Shown here: positions 1 through 25,027 of the stretch, piece after piece
Position numbering within the stretch: the first letter of the stretch is position 1
How the letters are laid out: each line of letters begins with the position of its first letter
DNA from: a virus
Taxonomy: Duplodnaviria; Heunggongvirae; Uroviricota; Caudoviricetes
Strand: one strand, 5' to 3'
Virus record (IMG/VR): IMGVR_UViG_2698536443_000023
Coordinates: 1-25,114 of that record
DNA: 25,114 nt
Position numbers and translations under genes: made by a program
Notes under the pieces: generated by a model
The model's database searches: none
Seen by the model: the letters and a program-made list of their open reading frames with translations, nothing else
Told to the model about the DNA's origin: nothing

Positions 1-318
1 ATGAAAAAGATAGCTGCTATATCATTAATTAGTATTTTTATTATGTCTGGTTGTGCTGTGCATAATGATGAGACAAGTATCGGTAAATTTGGTCTTGCAT
101 ATAAAAGTAATATTCAGCGTAAACTCGATAACCAATACTACACCGAAGCCGAAGCTTCTTTAGCCAGGGGCAGAATATCTGGTGCAGAAAATATAGTAAA
201 AAATGATGCAGCCCATTTCTGTGTTACTCAGGGCAAAAAAATGCAGATAGTTGACCTGAAGACAGAAGGTGCAGGATTACATGGCGTCGCTCGTCTGACA
301 TTCAAATGTGGAGAGTGA
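1..318 (+). CDS. Small predicted lipoprotein in the host flank outside the prophage att core
   Basis: 105-aa ORF with N-terminal hydrophobic signal and lipobox-like MSGC motif (MKKIAAISLISIFIMSGCAV). Lies outside the att core at 477-503. AT-rich. Identity not recognised with certainty. Confidence 0.55.
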   Translation: MKKIAAISLISIFIMSGCAVHNDETSIGKFGLAYKSNIQRKLDNQYYTEAEASLARGRISGAENIVKNDAAHFCVTQGKKMQIVDLKTEGAGLHGVARLTFKCGE

Positions 319-3893: not shown

Positions 3894-4165
3894 GTATTCG
3901 TATTGAAATTGGCGAACGTTATGTCGTTACCAGTGACAGCTTTCAGTTTATTCTCCACGAGAAAAAGAGAGCGGAAAGCGGTAAAAACGCCGGTCAGGAA
4001 TGGCTGGCGGTGGTTGGTTATTACCCGAAATTAAGCCAGCTCGTTTCCGGCCTGATGCATCACGATATTCTGACCGGAAGCGCAAAGTCTTTTGCTGATT
4101 TAAACGCGCAGGTTGAGCAACTCAGCAAGCGTTGTTCAGAGGCTTTTGGCTCATATGGCCGTTAA
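3890..4165 (+). CDS. Hypothetical early protein (P2 orf83-like)
   Basis: 91-aa ORF with ATGA overlap to the upstream gene; conserved position before A. Confidence 0.55.
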   Translation: MSIRIEIGERYVVTSDSFQFILHEKKRAESGKNAGQEWLAVVGYYPKLSQLVSGLMHHDILTGSAKSFADLNAQVEQLSKRCSEAFGSYGR

Positions 4166-6410
4166 AGCCTCCGGGCGTTTTGTCCCTCCGTCAGCATTTG
4201 CCGCAGGCACCGGTAAGACGTTTACCGGTGCTTATGCATGGAACGCGCCACGCGAGGCTGTCGGGCGCGAAAGACCCCTTACACGTGACGAGATGCGTCA
4301 GGTGCAAGGTGTTTTATCCACGATTAATCGCCTGCCTTACTTTTTGCGCTCGCTGTTTACTTCACGCTATGACTACATCCGGCGCAATAAAAGCCCGGTG
4401 CACGGGTTTTATTTCCTCACATCTACTTTTCAGCGTCGTTTATGGCCGCGCATTGAGCGTGTGAATCAGCGCCATGAAATGAACACCGACGCGTCGTTGC
4501 TGTTTCTGGCAGAGCGTGACCACTATGCGCGCCTGCCGGGAATGAATGACAAGGAGCTGAAAAAGTTTGCCGCCCGTATCTCATCGCAGCTTTTCATGAT
4601 GTATGAGGAACTCAGCGATGCCTGGGTGGATGCGCATGGCGAAAAAGAATCGCTGTTTACGGATGAGGCGCAGGCGCATCTGTATGGTCATGTTGCTGGC
4701 GCTGCACGTGCTTTCAATATTTCCCCGCTTTACTGGAAAAAATACCGTAAAGGACAGATGACCACGAGGCAGGCATATTCTGCCATTGCCCGTCTGTTTA
4801 ACGATGAGTGGTGGACTCATCAGCTTAAAGGTCAGCGTATGCGCTGGCATGAGGCGTTACTGATTGCTGTCGGGGAGGTCAATAAAGACCGTTCTCCTTA
4901 TGCCAGTAAACATGCCATTCGTGATGTGCGTGCGCGCCGCCAGGCAAATCTGGAATTTCTTAAATCGTGTGACCTCGAAAACAGGGAAACCGGCGAGCGC
5001 ATCGACCTTATCAGTAAGGTGATGGGCAGTATTTCTAATCCTGAAATTCGCCGGATGGAGCTGATGAACACCATTGCCGGTATTGAGCGTTACGCCGCCG
5101 CAGAGGGTGATGTGGGGATGTTTATCACGCTGACCGCGCCGTCAAAGTATCACCCGACACGTCAGGTCGGAAAAGGCGAAAGTAAAACCGTTCAGCTTAA
5201 TCACGGCTGGAACGATGAGGCATTTAATCCAAAGGATGCGCAGCGTTATCTCTGCCGTATCTGGAGCCTGATGCGCACGGCATTCAAGGATAATGATTTA
5301 CAGGTCTACGGTTTGCGAGTCGTCGAGCCACACCACGACGGAACGCCGCACTGGCATATGATGCTTTTTTGTCATCCACGCCAGCGTAACCAGATTATCG
5401 AAATCATGCGTCGCTATGCGCTCAAAGAGGATGGCGACGAAAGAGGAGCCGCGCGAAACCGTTTTCAGGCAAAACACCTTAACCGGGGCGGTGCTGCGGG
5501 ATATATCGCGAAATACATCTCAAAAAACATCGACGGCTATGCACTGGATGGTCAGCTCGATAATGATACCGGTAGGCCGCTGAAAGACACAGCTGCGGCT
5601 GTTACCGCATGGGCGTCAACGTGGCGCATTCCGCAATTTAAAACGGTTGGTCTGCCGACAATGGGGGCTTACCGTGAACTACGCAAATTGCCTCGTGGCG
5701 TCAGCATTGCTGATGAGTTTGACGAGCGCGTCGAGGCTGCACGCGCCGCTGCAGACAGTGGTGATTTTGCGTTGTATATCAGCGCGCAGGGCGGGGCAAA
5801 TGTCCCGCGCGATTGTCAGACTGTCAGGGTCGCCCGTAGCCCGTCGGATGACGTTAACGAGTACGAGGAAGAAGTCGAGAGAGTGGTCGGCATTTACGCG
5901 CCGCATCTCGGCGCGCGTCATATTCATATCACCAGAACGACGAACTGGCGCATTGTTCCGAAAGTGCCGGTCGTTGAGCCTTTGACTTTAAAAAGCGGCT
6001 TCGCCGCGCCTCGGAGTCCTGTCAATAACTGTGGAAAGCTCACCGGTGGTGATACTTCGTTACCGGCTCCCACACCTTCTGAGCACGCCGCAGCTGTGCT
6101 TAATCTGGTTGATGACGGTGTTATCGAATGGAGTGACCCGGAGGTTGTGAGGGTGCTCAGGGGCGCATTAAAACACGACCTGAGAACACCAAACCGTCAG
6201 CAAAGAAACGGAAGCCCGTTAAAACCACATGAAATAGCGCCATCAGCCAGGCTGACCCGGTCGGAACGATTTCAAATTACCCGTATCCGCGTTGACCTTG
6301 CTCAGAACGGTATCAGGCCGCAGCGATGGGAGCTTGAGGCACTGACGCGTGGGGCAACCGTAAATTATGACGGGAAAAAATTCAAATATCCGGTGATTGA
6401 TGAGTGGTAA
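4155..6410 (+). CDS. A: Replication initiation protein A (rolling-circle nicking endonuclease)
   Basis: Large ORF; product from MAVKASGRFVPP matches the P2 A N-terminus as recalled. Contains HUH-like motif (PHWHMMLF) and catalytic tyrosine region (YIAKYISK). Alternative in-frame start at 4113. Confidence 0.9.
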   Translation: MAVKASGRFVPPSAFAAGTGKTFTGAYAWNAPREAVGRERPLTRDEMRQVQGVLSTINRLPYFLRSLFTSRYDYIRRNKSPVHGFYFLTSTFQRRLWPRIERVNQRHEMNTDASLLFLAERDHYARLPGMNDKELKKFAARISSQLFMMYEELSDAWVDAHGEKESLFTDEAQAHLYGHVAGAARAFNISPLYWKKYRKGQMTTRQAYSAIARLFNDEWWTHQLKGQRMRWHEALLIAVGEVNKDRSPYASKHAIRDVRARRQANLEFLKSCDLENRETGERIDLISKVMGSISNPEIRRMELMNTIAGIERYAAAEGDVGMFITLTAPSKYHPTRQVGKGESKTVQLNHGWNDEAFNPKDAQRYLCRIWSLMRTAFKDNDLQVYGLRVVEPHHDGTPHWHMMLFCHPRQRNQIIEIMRRYALKEDGDERGAARNRFQAKHLNRGGAAGYIAKYISKNIDGYALDGQLDNDTGRPLKDTAAAVTAWASTWRIPQFKTVGLPTMGAYRELRKLPRGVSIADEFDERVEAARAAADSGDFALYISAQGGANVPRDCQTVRVARSPSDDVNEYEEEVERVVGIYAPHLGARHIHITRTTNWRIVPKVPVVEPLTLKSGFAAPRSPVNNCGKLTGGDTSLPAPTPSEHAAAVLNLVDDGVIEWSDPEVVRVLRGALKHDLRTPNRQQRNGSPLKPHEIAPSARLTRSERFQITRIRVDLAQNGIRPQRWELEALTRGATVNYDGKKFKYPVIDEW

Positions 6411-6539
6411 GGCTATTAGATTATGAATAAATACAGGTCTGATTGATGGATTGGAAAATAGCAAATTTAAAAAACAATAATTGTAATGTTTTAAGTAATG
6501 GTTAAATATTGCTTAATGTCATTGTTTTCTTAAATTTTA

Positions 6540-6570
6540 AAGTGCCTCCCATTATTAGGGGGCACTTTGA
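6540..6570. terminator. Candidate bidirectional stem-loop terminator between A and the convergent cargo operon
   Basis: Inverted repeat GTGCCTCCC / GGGGGCAC with 7-nt loop, flanked by T/A-rich tracts on both strands, within an AT-rich spacer. Confidence 0.4.
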
Positions 6571-6584
6571 TTGATGGGGGTGAT

Positions 6585-7868
6585 TTATTGTGGCCAGTCC
6601 CAGTTATCATATTGTCGAATTTTTTCTGATAACACTTGAGGCGCGCTACCGTGAGTTACATTTTCAGCATAACCAATCGTGCCGACATAGTTAATATCAT
6701 CAATATCAAGTGTATTGGCGTCCCATGGCCGTATCTTGCGAGTTGGTTCACAGATAGAAACGTCACGATTGATGGTTTTTAACCACGAGATATTTATTAC
6801 TTTTGCGCCTGCAGCTTTTAGATACATCCTGGCTGTTTCATGAGCATTTCCTTCAGTGCAAAAATCATCAATAACTAATATTTTCTTACCTTTCAAGTTC
6901 GGCGGGTTGGTATATCTTTTGCCGGTGTTGATATTTTTAATAGGGGCAGGGTTTAAATGAACGGTATTTATTTGAGATGTGATGTTTACTTCTTGTTTAG
7001 CTATTCGGGCTTGCTGTGACTTAATGGCTGTTGTATGTCGTAAGAATAGATCTTTTAAATACTTTCCTTTGAATGAGACCGCCAAACCTTTTAGGTCATG
7101 CTCCATAATATCTGCTAGTTTATAAGGGTTTTCAGCGTTATGTCCAACGTAGGTGGTTATAAAACTTGCTCCCTCACTTAAGCCAGAGAAATAAATGCTG
7201 GCACCAAGATATCTTATCCAAAAATCGGGGCTTCCAACCGATAGCTTGGCGAGGTCTCTTGCATTGGCTGAATACATTGTAAATTCAGTGACATATGTGC
7301 TAAATGGTGCCAAGGCGTAGTAGTGAACATCTTCATTAAAATGCCCTTGCCATCCCCACAACTGTTCTCTTAAGCAAAAAACATCAATAAATCTAGCGAT
7401 CTCTTTGGGTTCTGAAAATTGAAAACCGTACTCAGTAACCGGTTCATACCAGGTTGCATTAATAAATAGGGTGTTACCGTTGGTAGCTGCTTGTAAGTCT
7501 TCCCGAGAACGCCCAACATAGATCATTTCGTTTCGTTTCAACTCTAATGCAGCCATGATGAAATCTATGGCCTTCCCTGTTTGTTTTGCTGGTATGTTGT
7601 TGTCGAGTTCATGGCAAAAGTGAATTGATTCTGGGAATTTCCTTTTTAGGTATTCGTCTAGTGTTACGACCCCGTCATGTGTTTCCACGTTTCTATTTTT
7701 ATTTGTCAAGAAGATAACTTTAATCCCTTTTGATGACAAAAACGCAAACAACTTACGCAATTCCGAGTCGATTCTAGATTTTAGTTCCTGAGGTTGAGTG
7801 TTAGATGTTAATGGTAATACAACATCTGCGATTGAAAATATAACTGCCTTTAAATACATACTATTCAT
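6585..7868 (-). CDS. Phosphoribosyltransferase (PRTase)-like protein, cargo in the tin/old hotspot
   Basis: 427-aa ORF. Type I PRTase PRPP-binding-like motif KKILVIDDFCTEGNAHE at residues about 328-345 (nt about 6849-6884). Start overlaps upstream gene stop (alternative ATG at 7859). AT-rich relative to the phage backbone. Confidence 0.75.
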   Translation of the reverse strand: MNSMYLKAVIFSIADVVLPLTSNTQPQELKSRIDSELRKLFAFLSSKGIKVIFLTNKNRNVETHDGVVTLDEYLKRKFPESIHFCHELDNNIPAKQTGKAIDFIMAALELKRNEMIYVGRSREDLQAATNGNTLFINATWYEPVTEYGFQFSEPKEIARFIDVFCLREQLWGWQGHFNEDVHYYALAPFSTYVTEFTMYSANARDLAKLSVGSPDFWIRYLGASIYFSGLSEGASFITTYVGHNAENPYKLADIMEHDLKGLAVSFKGKYLKDLFLRHTTAIKSQQARIAKQEVNITSQINTVHLNPAPIKNINTGKRYTNPPNLKGKKILVIDDFCTEGNAHETARMYLKAAGAKVINISWLKTINRDVSICEPTRKIRPWDANTLDIDDINYVGTIGYAENVTHGSAPQVLSEKIRQYDNWDWPQ

Positions 7869-8910
7869 CTCCCAGAAGAGAAAGTTGCTGTGTTTTTACA
7901 CCGGATGCTGATTTAATTAAGTTTTGAACGTCTTTAAAATCGGATAGTGGAATGTTCATTATCGTAGCTGAGTACTCCGACAAGGCATGTTTAATTTCTT
8001 CTTGAGGTGTGGTTCCCCTAAGTAAAGGACAAAGTATCGCTCTTTTTAATTGAGCTGCATATCTCACAGTATGAGATGTCCCACTTTTTAGGCCCCATTC
8101 AACTGGGATTAATACATCACTTAAAGCTGCTTGAATTCTATTTCTACGAACAAAGTTTTCCTGTGATGGCTTTTGGTTTGGTAAATACTCAGTAAGAATC
8201 AGTCCGCCATTATTAACAATATGGCCTCTCATCTCGCCACTATTTTTGGGGTAATTTGAGTTTACACCTGTACCTAGCACAGCAATTGTCGGTATTTTAA
8301 ATAATAGGGATGCTTCATGTGCAGATTGATCTATACCATATGCTAAACCGCTTACAGTTGAATAATCTGAATCTATAAATTGTGAGATTACTGCTTGAGT
8401 TAAATAAATTCCAAGCGCGGTTGGGTTTCTAGTGCCGACAACTCCAACACACTTTTTATCTAGCAAAGATACATCGCCTTGAGCAAACAACCAGAAAGGC
8501 GGTTCAGACAGGTCATTCAACTTGTCTGGATAGTTTGGAGAACCATGGTGGATAATTTTGTAACCACTATTATGATAATGTGTGAGTAAGATTTTAGCCG
8601 TAGAAATCATGCGGTCCCGAAAAACAGACCAATTGCTTTCATTCAAATAATAAGGTTGGCGATGAAGTTTTACTCCGAGTAGATACTCAAAGTTGGCTAA
8701 TGTTTGGCTGGTAACAATGTCTCTAAATCTGATTCCCTTTTGAGCAACTTTATATAGAGTCCAATAACTCACGCCATGTATTTCTGATAGTGCCAACAAA
8801 GCGGCACTTTCTGTGTTCCATCGAGCTGTTTCAATATCCGTCATAATGTTCGCCAAAATGGAAGATTTTTTATCGCTTTTATCATAGGTTTGTATAAAAG
8901 TGTAGCACAT
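7861..8910 (-). CDS. DprA/Smf-like (SLOG superfamily Rossmann-fold) protein, cargo in the tin/old hotspot
   Basis: 349-aa ORF. Central region VGVVGTRNPTALG...VSGLAYGIDQSAHEASL...IAVLGTGVNSNYPKNS...RRNRIQAALSDVLIPVEWGLKSGTSHT matches the conserved DprA Rossmann core (VGsR, SGlAxGID, AVLGxG..YP, RNRI, SGSL/T). Overlaps the downstream PRTase gene by 8 nt. Confidence 0.8.
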   Translation of the reverse strand: MCYTFIQTYDKSDKKSSILANIMTDIETARWNTESAALLALSEIHGVSYWTLYKVAQKGIRFRDIVTSQTLANFEYLLGVKLHRQPYYLNESNWSVFRDRMISTAKILLTHYHNSGYKIIHHGSPNYPDKLNDLSEPPFWLFAQGDVSLLDKKCVGVVGTRNPTALGIYLTQAVISQFIDSDYSTVSGLAYGIDQSAHEASLLFKIPTIAVLGTGVNSNYPKNSGEMRGHIVNNGGLILTEYLPNQKPSQENFVRRNRIQAALSDVLIPVEWGLKSGTSHTVRYAAQLKRAILCPLLRGTTPQEEIKHALSEYSATIMNIPLSDFKDVQNLIKSASGVKTQQLSLLGDE

Positions 8911-9049
8911 TAAACTAAGACTTTAGAGGGCATGTTCTTGCATCAAAATGCATGTAAAAAAACAAAAAATTAATGAACCTTAGGTCTTATCCAGTCAATC
9001 TCTAGTGTTCACATGCATCTGCATTAAAACCGACTCATGAAGCGGGCGG

Positions 9050-9068
9050 GCGAGGCGGGGAAAGCACT
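9050..9068. other. cos site (19-nt cohesive-end sequence of P2-type phages)
   Basis: GGCGAGGCGGGGAAAGCAC matches the P2 cohesive end as I recall it, in the expected position between the hotspot and Q. Confidence 0.75.
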
Positions 9069-9208
9069 GCGCGCTGGCGGTGGTGCTGATTTTATTTTTT
9101 CAGCGTCTGAGCGCGTCGTGAAGGCGTTTACTTGGCCTGCTGGGCGTTGGTGTGTCTGCGGGGTGTTTTGTGCGGTGGTGAGCGTGTGAGGGCGTGATGA
9201 CGGGGTGT

Positions 9209-9230
9209 AAAAAAGCCGCCCGCAGGCGGC
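9209..9230 (-). terminator. Rho-independent terminator downstream of Q
   Basis: On the minus strand: GCCGCC-TGCG-GGCGGC hairpin followed by TTTTTT, immediately after the Q stop codon. Confidence 0.6.
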
Positions 9231-9235
9231 GATGT

Positions 9236-10270
9236 TCAGCCGTTGTCAGTGTCCAGTGAGTAGTTTTTAAAGCGGATGACCTCCTGACCGAGCCAGCCGT
9301 TTATCTCGCGGATCCTGTCCTGTAGCGGGATAAGCTCATTGCGGACAAAGACCTTTGCCACTTTCTCAATATCACCCAGCGACCCGACGTTCTCCGGCTT
9401 GCCGCCCATCAACTGAAAGGGGATGCGGTGCGCGTCCAGCAGGTCAGCGGCGCTGGCTTTTTTGATATTAAAAAAATCGTCCTTCGTTGCCACTTCACTG
9501 AGCGGGATAATTTTGATGCCGTCGGCTTTCCCCTGTGGGGCATAGAGAAACAGATTTTTAAAGTTGTTGCGGCCTTTCGACTTCACCATGTTTTCGCGGA
9601 GCATTTCGATATCGTTGCGATCCTGTACGGCATCAGTGACGTACATGATGTATCCGGCATGAGCGCCGTTTTCGTAATACTTGCGGCGGAACAGTGTGGC
9701 TGATTCATTCAGCCAGGCAGAATTAAGGGCGCTGAGATATTCCGGCAGGCCGTACAGCTCCTGATTGATATCCGGCTCCAGCAGGTGAAACACGGAGCCG
9801 GGCGTGAAGGCTGTCGGCTCGTTGAAGGACGGCACCCACCAGTAAACATCCTCCTCCACGCCACGGCGGGTATATTTTGCCGGTGAGGTTTCCAGTCTGA
9901 TGACCTTACCGGTGGTGCTGTAACGCTTTTCCAGAAACGCATTACCGAACACCAGAAAATCCAGCACAAAGCGGCTGAAATCCTGTTGCGAAAGCCACGG
10001 ATGCGGGATAAATGTCGAGGCCAGAATATTGCGTTTAACGTAAATCGGTGAGCTGTGATGCACGGCAGCACGCAGACTTTTTGCCAGACCGGTAAAGCTG
10101 ACCGGTGGCTCATACCATCTGCCGTTACTGATGCACTCGACGTAATCCAGAATGTCACGGCGGTCGAGTACCGGCACCGGCTCACCAAAGGTGAATGCCT
10201 CCATTTTCGGGGCGCTGGCGGTCATTTTTTTTGCCGCAGGTTGCGGTGTTTTCCCTTTTTTCTTGCTCAT
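9236..10270 (-). CDS. Q: Portal (capsid) protein Q
   Basis: 344-aa ORF matching P2 Q in size and in position, leftward from the divergent late promoter region and next to cos. Confidence 0.95.
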   Translation of the reverse strand: MSKKKGKTPQPAAKKMTASAPKMEAFTFGEPVPVLDRRDILDYVECISNGRWYEPPVSFTGLAKSLRAAVHHSSPIYVKRNILASTFIPHPWLSQQDFSRFVLDFLVFGNAFLEKRYSTTGKVIRLETSPAKYTRRGVEEDVYWWVPSFNEPTAFTPGSVFHLLEPDINQELYGLPEYLSALNSAWLNESATLFRRKYYENGAHAGYIMYVTDAVQDRNDIEMLRENMVKSKGRNNFKNLFLYAPQGKADGIKIIPLSEVATKDDFFNIKKASAADLLDAHRIPFQLMGGKPENVGSLGDIEKVAKVFVRNELIPLQDRIREINGWLGQEVIRFKNYSLDTDNG

Positions 10271-23161: not shown

Positions 23162-23689
23162 ATGCAGCATTTGATAAATATAACGGCGGGTAATCCAAAA
23201 ACGGTTGAACAATATCAATTGACAAAGAATTTTGATGTTGTCTGGTTTTTTTCAGAAGATGGTAAGAACTGGTACGAAGAACAAAAGTATTTTGCTGATG
23301 ACACGATAAAAATAGCGTACGACAAAGATAATATCATCCACTATGTGGAAAAGGATGTGACAGCTATCAGACCGGATGGATTAAGTGTTGTTGAAGTGGC
23401 GGATATTACTGCTAACCGACGGGCGGACATTTCAGGGAACTGGATGTTTAAGGACGGCAAAGTGATTAAACGCATTTATACGGCAGAGGAATTACAGCAG
23501 CAGGCAGAAATTCGGAAAGCCAGACTTCTTGCAGATGCTGAATCCGTGATTTTGCCGCTGGAGCGCGCGGTCAGACTGAACATGGCAACAGATGAGGAGC
23601 GTAGCCGACTGGAATCATGGGAACGCTACAGCGTTCTGGTCAGTCGTGTGGATCCTGCAAATCCTGAATGGCCGGAAATGCCACAATAA
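23162..23689 (+). CDS. G: Tail fibre assembly chaperone G
   Basis: 175-aa ORF directly downstream of H, matching P2 G in size and position (tail fibre assembly protein family). Confidence 0.9.
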
Positions 23690-23879: not shown

Positions 23880-24650
23880 TTACTCTTTAGCTCGTTTGGT
23901 CATCTCATTTGCTAACTGTGTAGACCAATAATGTTGACTCTTTGCTTCTAATATGAAAAGTAGCGCTCTCACACATTGTAGCTGAGCATGCACATAAGTA
24001 TGAATATTACCAACCGAAGTAGGAACTAAGTGGGTTTCAGGTGTGTAGTAGTGGTAGATGCTCGTTTGTGAAGGATGAACATATTCGCTAAGTATGTCAT
24101 AAGTCAGTTCAAAATCACTTTCCATCTGATTAGTCTGCTTCATCTCATCTTTATAGAGTTCGCGTAAAGCAGTCATCACATGCATACTGACAGCAAGTAG
24201 GTTTTCAAAACGATATTTAGCCTCCTCAGTAAACATGTAGTCGTTCGGGTCAAATACTTCTTTCTGAATCTTTTCTTGCTCTGACTTTTTAAATCGAGAA
24301 CTATTCGTAAAGTTCAATATAACTTCGATAGCGTTATCTACACTTGCGTGTCCATTTTGGGTAGTCAAAATTTTCTCTACTTTCTTGTTTAAGAGTCGTG
24401 AGAAGGCATGAGTTTCAATCATTCCTCGGCTAACAATACAAGCGCTTTGGTATCGTTCGTTTTCGAGGAGGAGAAGCGCATCATCGAAGATGTCTATCTG
24501 CCTGTTCATAAGTAAATTGGCATAATTAACGAGATACAGTCCGCGGTCAGGGTTATATGTTTTTTCGACAATTACACCATTAATCTTGCTCAGCGCAGCT
24601 CTGGCGGCTTTTGCCTCATTCAGTCTCTGTTCTATAAGTTCTTTATACAT
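23880..24650 (-). CDS. Hypothetical protein of unknown function, cargo at the P2 Z/fun hotspot
   Basis: 256-aa ORF on the opposite strand to the flanking late genes. AAGGAAA Shine-Dalgarno before the ATG at 24650. Markedly AT-rich. No domain recognised. Occupies the variable locus between G and FI. Confidence 0.7.
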   Translation of the reverse strand: MYKELIEQRLNEAKAARAALSKINGVIVEKTYNPDRGLYLVNYANLLMNRQIDIFDDALLLLENERYQSACIVSRGMIETHAFSRLLNKKVEKILTTQNGHASVDNAIEVILNFTNSSRFKKSEQEKIQKEVFDPNDYMFTEEAKYRFENLLAVSMHVMTALRELYKDEMKQTNQMESDFELTYDILSEYVHPSQTSIYHYYTPETHLVPTSVGNIHTYVHAQLQCVRALLFILEAKSQHYWSTQLANEMTKRAKE

Positions 24651-24976: not shown

Positions 24977-25027
24977 ATGAGTGACTATCATCACGGCGTG
25001 CAGGTGCTGGAGATTAACGACGGCACC
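24977..25027 (+). pseudogene. FI: Tail sheath gene FI, interrupted after codon 17 by IS2
   Basis: ATG at 24977 with GGAG upstream encodes MSDYHHGVQVLEINDGT, matching the P2 FI N-terminus as recalled. The reading frame then runs into the IS2 terminal sequence. Confidence 0.7.

Follow-up and report, generated by a model that had tools for sequence, protein, structure and literature searches.

What occupies the slot between replication gene A and the cohesive-end site of this prophage, and is it a new defence system? The window, meaning the whole stretch of 25,114 nt analysed here, carries at this place a low-GC cassette with two intact minus-strand open reading frames (6585–7868, 427 aa; 7861–8910, 349 aa), exactly where an earlier note, made from the sequence alone, had placed them. 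That note proposed a two-gene DprA-like and PRTase-like operon, a candidate anti-phage system in the P2 tin/old hotspot. The element that hosts the cassette is a P2-like prophage integrated beside E. coli yegR. The landmarks of the slot are the following.

4113–6410, plus strand: P2 replication gene A, left flank (Pfam Phage_GPA, E 6e-124)
6411–9011, no strand: low-GC cassette, exchangeable cargo of the P2 gpA-cos hotspot (limits from the similarity breakpoints against the E47 prophage)
6546–6562, no strand: terminator-like hairpin between convergent gene A and shosT (scan match; putative function)
8845–9011, minus strand: upstream region of the cassette, presumed native promoter (the constructs in PMC11961720 relied on the native promoter)
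9049–9067, plus strand: 19-mer GGCGAGGCGGGGAAAGCAC, presumed P2 cos cohesive end and right edge of the hotspot (exact match)
9236–10270, minus strand: portal gene Q, right flank (Pfam Phage_portal; RefSeq annotation of the APEC O18 and E47 prophages)

Relative to gene A the cassette runs convergently, and it is placed upstream of portal gene Q and terminase gene P. Its GC content is 38.5% (6585–8910), against 52% elsewhere in the window and 53% in the flanking genes A and Q. Both the AT-rich character and the convergent position between A and cos are therefore as described earlier. Gene A is annotated as 'replication endonuclease' in the RefSeq records of the APEC O18 and E47 prophages, and its RefSeq homologues begin about 42 nt later than position 4113. 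The sequence GGCGAGGCGGGGAAAGCAC, which we take to be the P2 cos 19-mer, has one exact match in the window where none is expected by chance.

Comparison with the prophage of E. coli E47 defines the cassette as exchangeable. Over 88% of the window the E47 backbone is 98.4% identical; the similarity breaks off at about 6408 and picks up again at about 9012, and the E47 slot is filled by a reverse transcriptase gene. The pair thus lies between gpA and cos/gpQ, and a backbone of the same kind can carry other cargo in its place, as is characteristic of hotspot cargo. The APEC O18 prophage has the same arrangement as the window (gpA-shosT-shosA-Q) and keeps the hairpin at 6546–6562. A sigma-70 consensus scan of the minus strand of 8845–9011 gave no convincing promoter, overall matches not rising above the shuffled expectation. 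A scan of the whole window at Rfam gathering thresholds gave zero matches, and the second hotspot gene (DUF5677, 23880–24650) matched nothing in PADLOC or PHROGs.

Profile and structure searches identify the pair. The upstream protein matches the PADLOC ShosA model PDLC02997 with 767.7 bits, residues 23–349 of the open reading frame covering profile positions 1–327 of 327, and a second model, PDLC03961, with 284.9 bits. The downstream protein matches the ShosT model PDLC03012 over its full length (971.3 bits, profile positions 1–427 of 427) and a second model, PDLC03962, with 182.4 bits. Apart from a weaker match of ShosA to PsyrA (83.9 bits), neither protein matched any other PADLOC model at E up to 1. 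In the PDB, ShosA finds 9VZO and 8ZVA (E 5e-218) and ShosT finds 8ZVB/C/D and 9W2P/Q (E 1e-285). These crystallised E. coli proteins are 98% (ShosA) and 96% (ShosT) identical to the pair in the window. Relative to the APEC O18 copy, 322 of 327 residues are identical in ShosA (RefSeq, 327 aa) and 408 of 424 in ShosT. A DprA and PRTase pair had already been cloned from the P2 hotspot and shown to protect against T7 and lambda (Rousset et al. 2022, PMC9122126), so the statement that such a class was known from hotspot surveys is correct. The two genes are therefore already known. They are a near-exact copy of the tested and crystallised ShosTA, and the find is real but ordinary; the label 'candidate' no longer applies to a system with dedicated PADLOC models and crystal structures of 96–98% identical proteins. 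Taken together, it is almost certain that the pair is ShosTA, a type IV toxin-antitoxin system giving abortive-infection-type phage defence, carried as P2-like prophage cargo; the copy is predicted to be functional and to work as published.

The same searches bear on whether these could be ordinary paralogues with a competence or housekeeping role, a DprA/Smf recombination mediator and a ComF-like or salvage PRTase, present in the prophage by chance. The upstream product does have a DprA core, as the earlier note had seen, with a strong match to Pfam DNA_processg_A (E 1.5e-59) and a weak one to SLOG/cpYpsA (E 0.024), and RefSeq names this gene 'DNA-processing protein DprA'. However, it stays below the cut-offs of both NCBIfam DprA equivalogs (TIGR00732, 171.3 against 191.15 bits; NF008007, 129.5 against 495 bits). 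Weak matches of ShosT to PRTase families also speak for this reading, but the ComF profile TIGR00201 reaches 11.8 bits where 233.55 are required, so that the analogy with ComF drawn earlier is not upheld, and the PyrE, XPRT, HGPRT and APRT equivalogs all fall far below their cut-offs. ShosT scores 25.4 bits with Pfam Pribosyltran, slightly below the 26.3-bit cut-off; the PRTase-like motif is nonetheless real, since the crystal structure of the 96% identical protein shows a PRTase fold in complex with PRPP (PMC11961720). Against a chance paralogue also stand the placement of the pair inside a 2.6-kb low-GC cassette whose place is taken by different cargo in a prophage that is otherwise near-identical, and its occurrence in just 30 of 5426 complete E. 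coli genomes. In practice this explanation is refuted by proteins 96–98% identical to those of the window, which are toxic (ShosT) and defend against phage (PMC11961720, PMC9122126), and we give it practically no credence. In its essentials the earlier reading, a two-gene DprA-like and PRTase-like anti-phage system in the tin/old hotspot, was right.

The gene limits require a correction. M23 of the longer upstream frame is where the PADLOC model, the PDB chains and the RefSeq protein start, and this residue, at 8844, is the most likely start of ShosA. For ShosT the most likely start is M4 at 7859, since a GGGAG motif is spaced 9 nt upstream of M4, whereas no gap separates it from the ATG of M1, and the RefSeq protein has 424 aa. 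The genes are accordingly the following.

6585–7859, minus strand: shosT, toxin, 424 aa (PADLOC, PDB, identity to APEC O18; the longest open reading frame starts at 7868)
7861–8844, minus strand: shosA, DprA-like antitoxin, 327 aa (PADLOC, PDB, RefSeq; the longest open reading frame reaches 8910)

The 8-nt overlap described earlier holds for the two longest open reading frames. With the likely starts M4 and M23 it gives way to a 1-nt gap, and the operon ends at 8844 rather than at 8910. The shosA stop (7861–7863) adjoins the shosT start at 7859 (or 7868), the antitoxin gene lying upstream of the toxin gene on the same strand. APEC O18 and three distant plasmids keep this order.

Against the reference allele, that of APEC O18, ShosT differs by 16 substitutions and ShosA by 5, none at a residue with a published role. 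Synonymous codon changes prevail over non-synonymous ones in both genes (37 against 16 in shosT, 29 against 5 in shosA). The residues from both structure papers that can be placed are all conserved, save three that are also missing in the reference allele. These are ShosT H204 and S291 and ShosA F301, named in PMC12961424; the window and APEC O18 alike have A, V and S there. Since ShosT H240 is present and ShosA reads S301-D302-F303, we treat them as probable numbering or strain differences in that paper and not as peculiarities of the window. Five of the 16 ShosT substitutions fall within residues 301–321, just upstream of the PRPP loop (permutation p 0.046, post hoc, two alleles). This clustering is marginal and too weak to claim diversifying selection; that the five changes alter acceptor or phage specificity is a lesser possibility.

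The 16 amino-acid differences from the studied ShosT could also be read as the mark of a decayed, non-functional copy. Such decay is very improbable, however: both frames are full length, every placeable functional residue is kept, synonymous changes prevail, and a 99.5% identical cassette is present in two other E. coli genomes. From the intact frames, the antitoxin-toxin order with adjacent stop and start, the conserved placeable residues and the synonymous excess, we infer that the ShosTA copy of the window is functional, with the same mode of action.

The toxin has two domains, the first of which the earlier note, describing the downstream product by its PRTase alone, had missed.

7368–7859, minus strand: ShosT N-terminal HAD-like (pyrophosphatase-like) domain, residues 1–164 (weak Pfam Hydrolase/HAD_2 match; limits from PMC11961720)
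6588–7367, minus strand: ShosT PRTase domain, residues 165–424 (Pfam Pribosyltran, PRPP contact residues)

The PRPP contacts H240, K280, R285, D331, D332 and E336 are all found at their published positions (424-aa numbering). The DD motif that had been noted at about residues 334–335 is present in the 427-aa frame and corresponds to the published D331/D332. In related work ShosT is the toxin, and its non-canonical C-terminal PRTase domain binds PRPP; the D331A/D332A or R285E mutations abolish toxicity (PMC11961720, PMC12961424). Expression of ShosT perturbs purine metabolism and leads to filamentation, DNA duplications and death (PMC11961720, PMC12961424). ShosT bound none of the purines tested, and the published mechanism is incomplete as to PRTase turnover and acceptor (PMC11961720).

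The N-terminal domain is less canonical. Its phosphate contacts N53, K54, R56 and K92 are present, and the HAD motif I, DxDx(T/V), is missing: the N-terminus reads MYLKAVIFSIADVV (AVIFSIADVV), with no DxD. A PDB search with this domain alone gave a sole, marginal match other than ShosT itself (2HI0, E 0.45). At the motif IV position ShosT has GRSRED, compared with the canonical GDxxxD and with GDSEID in 2HI0; the alignment with 2HI0 is weak, so that this statement on the HAD motifs is indicative only. The domain hydrolyses PPi in vitro with a contribution to toxicity that is only marginal, and R56A has just a marginal effect (PMC11961720). As the DxD nucleophile is missing, the in vitro assay is the sole basis for a pyrophosphatase role. 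The HAD-like domain may instead be a ligand-binding or regulatory module and not a true pyrophosphatase, in which case ShosT might make a toxic ribonucleotide; we consider this conceivable but rather doubtful.

The antitoxin is organised as follows.

8563–8844, minus strand: ShosA N-terminal SAM-like domain, residues 1–94 (limits mapped from the crystal structures, PMC11961720, PMC12961424)
7906–8562, minus strand: ShosA DprA/Rossmann domain, residues 95–313 (Pfam DNA_processg_A)
7864–7905, minus strand: ShosA C-terminal disordered tail, residues 314–327 (PMC11961720)

As a DprA-like dimer, ShosA binds both ssDNA and RecA (PMC12961424). The residues to which these roles were assigned (PMC12961424) are all present in the window: R139, R234 and R261 for ssDNA binding, L181 and F182 at the dimer contact, K200 and R206 at the RecA contact. 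The tail, reported to make ShosA unstable (PMC11961720), is identical to that of the reference allele over residues 314–327. ShosA neutralises ShosT without binding it, and for this it needs dimerisation, ssDNA binding and RecA binding, all three (PMC11961720, PMC12961424).

These observations weigh on a signalling type of defence, in which a SLOG-type DprA would sense a nucleotide messenger, as ThsA does, or the PRTase would make or destroy the signal. Such a scheme would accommodate the weak cpYpsA match of the upstream protein, and published work names no PRTase acceptor for ShosT. But the conserved DprA arginines give ShosA its ssDNA binding, and it binds RecA as well, both being needed for antitoxin activity (PMC12961424); ShosT alone is toxic and needs no signal or partner (PMC11961720, PMC12961424); and the cassette holds no cyclase or other signal-producing gene. 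Signalling of this kind is accordingly most improbable. The earlier suggestion that the pair acts on incoming phage DNA or on a nucleotide signal does not fit a toxin that hits host metabolism and a partner that is its antitoxin, and two mechanism papers (PMC11961720, PMC12961424) supersede the remark that no mechanism was established.

By analogy with the published system, the ShosT of the window would be a toxin directed at the metabolism of its own host through its PRPP-binding PRTase domain, and ShosA would be an unstable type IV antitoxin that keeps it neutralised without contact. Phage host shut-off, as by T7 Gp0.7, would then lead to ShosA decay, ShosT toxicity and abortive infection. 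In the published experiments T7 Gp0.7 host shut-off, chloramphenicol or rifampicin made ShosA fall and released the toxic effect of ShosT made earlier (PMC11961720).

The triggers favoured in PMC11961720 and PMC12961424 differ. ShosA could be the sensor of the same system, with phage ssDNA or replication intermediates titrating it off RecA as the main trigger in place of shut-off and decay. Surplus ssDNA inhibits the ShosA-RecA binding, and phages that escape (T7, SECphi4 and SECphi18) carry their mutations in SSB and primase-helicase genes (PMC12961424). On the other hand, T7 SSB co-expressed with ShosTA is non-toxic and Gp0.7 is toxic, ShosA protein drops after infection, and chloramphenicol or rifampicin alone activates toxicity (PMC11961720). 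We regard ssDNA as the main trigger as a genuine possibility, somewhat short of even. The two triggers are not mutually exclusive.

ShosTA could also serve mainly as an addiction module, keeping the prophage or the cassette stable, with phage defence as a side effect. The toxin-antitoxin nature of the pair is genuine and its antitoxin is unstable (PMC11961720), and its plasmid homologues lie beside other toxin-antitoxin modules. Yet ShosTA expressed from its native promoter cuts T7 plating about a million-fold (PMC11961720), and the hotspot is dominated by defence cargo (PMC9122126); a mainly addictive role is thus unlikely. Addiction and defence roles can coexist.

Naming the genes ShosT and ShosA corrects the annotation of the prophage, since the RefSeq labels still read 'hypothetical protein' and 'DNA-processing protein DprA'. 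The window also provides a clean natural case of cargo swap at the P2 gpA-cos slot, ShosTA here against the reverse transcriptase gene in E47. Beyond annotation its import is small; the points still under study, namely the PRTase acceptor, what the degenerate HAD-like domain really does and the trigger, concern the family.

Among known systems, the closest is the ShosTA of E. coli APEC O1 / KTE181 (8ZVA–8ZVD, 9VZO, 9W2P, 9W2Q; 'Shosta' in PADLOC/DefenseFinder), with 96% identity in ShosT and 98% in ShosA. Gene order, the P2 gpA-cos hotspot and the placeable functional residues are common to both, and the 16 ShosT and 5 ShosA substitutions set them apart. The system of Rousset et al. 2022 (PMC9122126) shares the hotspot and the domain pair, and is likened to the window on those grounds and not on sequence. 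More distant homologues are found on plasmids of Piscirickettsia, Sinorhizobium and Bermanella, where a DprA gene lies directly upstream of a HAD and PRTase gene (one or two open reading frames) with 31–39% identity to ShosT. PsyrTA / RqlHI likewise has a DprA-like antitoxin, and the proposed toxin of RqlHI is a PRTase domain that causes filamentation (PMC11961720). It is nevertheless a different family: the PsyrA profile matches ShosA weakly and the toxin of the window has no PsyrT match in PADLOC. Canonical DprA/Smf proteins (S. pneumoniae 3UQZ, H. pylori 4LJR) share with ShosA the SAM and Rossmann folds, the ssDNA-binding arginines, dimerisation and RecA binding. ShosA differs in falling below the NCBIfam equivalog cut-offs and in having an additional helix at the C-terminus and a tail that is unstable, and it is an antitoxin whereas the canonical proteins serve transformation. 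Finally, the same genomic slot holds old and tin in reference P2, both of which exclude other phages.

The two minus-strand ORFs described in the earlier note are matched exactly in the ORF listing of the window, and their placement between gene A and cos holds, with flanks located at either side:

1-318, plus strand: host gene yegR, at the window start, with the integrase, C and cox genes next
583-1596: integrase gene, downstream of yegR
4113-6410, plus strand: P2 replication gene A, left flank (Pfam Phage_GPA, E 6e-124)
6585-7868, minus strand: ORF of 427 aa
7861-8910, minus strand: ORF of 349 aa
9236-12072, minus strand: portal gene Q and terminase gene P, right flank (profile matches)

The pair has a GC content of 38.5%; the remainder of the window has 52%, and the genes on either flank 53%. 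The P2 cos 19-mer occurs once in the window, at 9049-9067. Together with cos, yegR, the integrase, C and cox genes and genes A, Q and P identify the element as a P2-like prophage of E. coli. Since yegR is followed by the integrase gene, the prophage is integrated beside yegR.

The pair is the already known ShosTA system, composed of the toxin ShosT and the DprA-like antitoxin ShosA. Both proteins gave full-length PADLOC matches (971.3 bits for ShosT, 767.7 bits for ShosA). A PDB sequence search retrieved 8ZVB/C/D, 9W2P and 9W2Q for ShosT (E 1e-285) and 9VZO and 8ZVA for ShosA (E 5e-218). Identity to the E. coli APEC O18 prophage copy reaches 408/424 residues in ShosT and 322/327 in ShosA. The DprA domain of ShosA is backed by Pfam (E 1.5e-59). 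In ShosT the Pfam PRTase match falls below threshold (25.4 versus 26.3 bits), and weak Pfam HAD matches lie in the N-terminal part. The proposal of anti-phage cargo in the P2 hotspot was therefore correct in kind, but its substance is out of date, because the pair is a named, structurally solved and phenotypically validated system. The domain account was also incomplete, as it missed the N-terminal HAD-like domain of ShosT.

M23 of the long ORF (8844) is where ShosA begins in the PADLOC model, in the PDB chains and in RefSeq alike, and RefSeq places the ShosT start at M4 (7859). GGGAG is found 9 nt before this M4, yet directly abuts M1. The probable gene extents are:

6585-7859, minus strand: shosT, start M4
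7861-8844, minus strand: shosA, start M23

With these starts, the shosA stop and shosT start are likely one base apart, replacing the 8-nt overlap claimed in the earlier note. The DD pair placed there at residues 334-335 thus becomes D331/D332, the numbering of both mechanism papers.

The gpA-gpQ hotspot of P2-like phages was defined by Rousset et al. 2022 (PMC9122126), who cloned from it a DprA+PRTase pair that protected against T7 and lambda, and tied this pair to the shosTA toxin-antitoxin. In the work of Pu et al. 2025 on the APEC O1 system, T7 plating fell by six orders of magnitude when the system was carried with its native promoter (PMC11961720). ShosT is toxic and is neutralised by ShosA, which does not bind it, hence a type IV toxin-antitoxin. 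The N-terminal HAD-type domain (residues 1-164) hydrolyses PPi in vitro and the PRTase domain (residues 165-424) binds PRPP; toxicity is lost with D331A/D332A, whereas R56A has a marginal effect only. When ShosT is expressed, purine metabolism is perturbed, cells filament and DNA duplications arise. ShosA binds ssDNA, its C-terminal tail makes it unstable, and toxicity is released by T7 Gp0.7, chloramphenicol or rifampicin (all PMC11961720). Working on the KTE181 system, Yang et al. 2026 confirmed the structures, showed that ShosA forms a dimer and binds RecA through K200 and R206, found that excess ssDNA disrupts this binding, and argued for phage ssDNA as a second trigger (PMC12961424).

In the window, the HAD-like domain corresponds to:

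7368-7859, minus strand: ShosT HAD-like domain, residues 1-164

The canonical DxD nucleophile motif was not found at the end of its first strand, which reads MYLKAVIFSIADVV, and GRSRED appears to occupy the position of the HAD phosphatase motif IV GDxxxD. Both features fit the reported Mg-independent activity and marginal R56A phenotype. The published pyrophosphatase assignment of this domain comes solely from an in-vitro assay.

The E. coli E47 prophage (L002) aligns to 88% of the window, with 98.4% identity. Similarity ends at ~6408 and restarts at ~9012, with sharp breakpoints directly after the gpA stop and ~37 bp ahead of cos, which therefore delimit an exchangeable cassette of ~2.6 kb. 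In place of window 6411-9011, E47 (L002 6926-8470) carries not ShosTA but a gene annotated 'RNA-directed DNA polymerase' (reverse transcriptase). Some part of 6411-9235 is matched in 2153 complete E. coli genomes; at least 80% of it is present in 30 of 5426. Among phage records, three carry it, and these represent two phages (Peduovirus P24C9 and Escherichia phage 10W). ShosT also has more distant homologues, at 31-39% identity, on Piscirickettsia, Sinorhizobium and Bermanella plasmids, all three with a DprA gene immediately upstream. ShosA scored below threshold against the DprA equivalogs, as did ShosT against the ComF model. That the proteins are housekeeping or competence paralogues is ruled out by the cassette exchange, the rarity, the phage carriers, the DprA pairing on plasmids and these sub-threshold scores.

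In the complete RefSeq E. coli chromosome records H1, H3, H8 and H10 the 6411-9235 region lies at position 2257. Their first base thus apparently coincides with the beginning of prophage gene A, which probably reflects rotation of the chromosome by assembly software to a 'replication protein' gene. On the Piscirickettsia salmonis plasmid (L003), the ShosTA homologue is flanked by an MqsRA toxin-antitoxin pair and phage terminase/portal genes, so that this 41-kb 'plasmid' looks like a phage-plasmid with defence cargo. Beside the homologue on the Sinorhizobium alkalisoli plasmid, on the opposite strand, a second DprA-like gene and a hypothetical gene (L004 4279-5812) are possibly another toxin-antitoxin with a DprA-type antitoxin.

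A further candidate lies elsewhere in the window:

23880-24650, minus strand: DUF5677 protein, 256 aa (Pfam E 1.3e-10)

Its location is a low-GC gap, bordered by the tail-fibre assembly gene (23162-23689) on one side and by the tail sheath gene (starting at 24977) on the other; in P2 this position belongs to the Z/fun exclusion gene. PADLOC and PHROGs profile searches gave no match for the protein. The gene is also present in the E47 prophage, and could be a second, putative exclusion gene. A 2025 preprint chose a DUF5677 gene as a defence candidate for testing (10.1101/2025.10.07.681051).

The window proteins keep every residue of published role that could be placed on them: in ShosT N53, K54, R56, K92, Y196, H240, K280, R285, Q296, D331, D332 and E336-N338, and in ShosA the hydrophobic contacts of the dimer as well as R139, R234, R261, L144, L181, F182, K200, R206 and N211. 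None of the substitutions relative to APEC O18 (16 in ShosT, 5 in ShosA) falls at these residues, and synonymous to non-synonymous codon differences number 37 : 16 in shosT and 29 : 5 in shosA. Because the placed residues are kept, the substitutions avoid them and the changes are mostly synonymous, we infer with high confidence from sequence that the window allele would be functional. Five of the 16 ShosT differences from the studied allele cluster at residues 301-321 (6897-6959, minus strand), just upstream of the PRPP loop (permutation p 0.046, in a post hoc test comparing two alleles). The APEC O18 prophage cassette shares with the window the gpA-shosT-shosA-Q layout.
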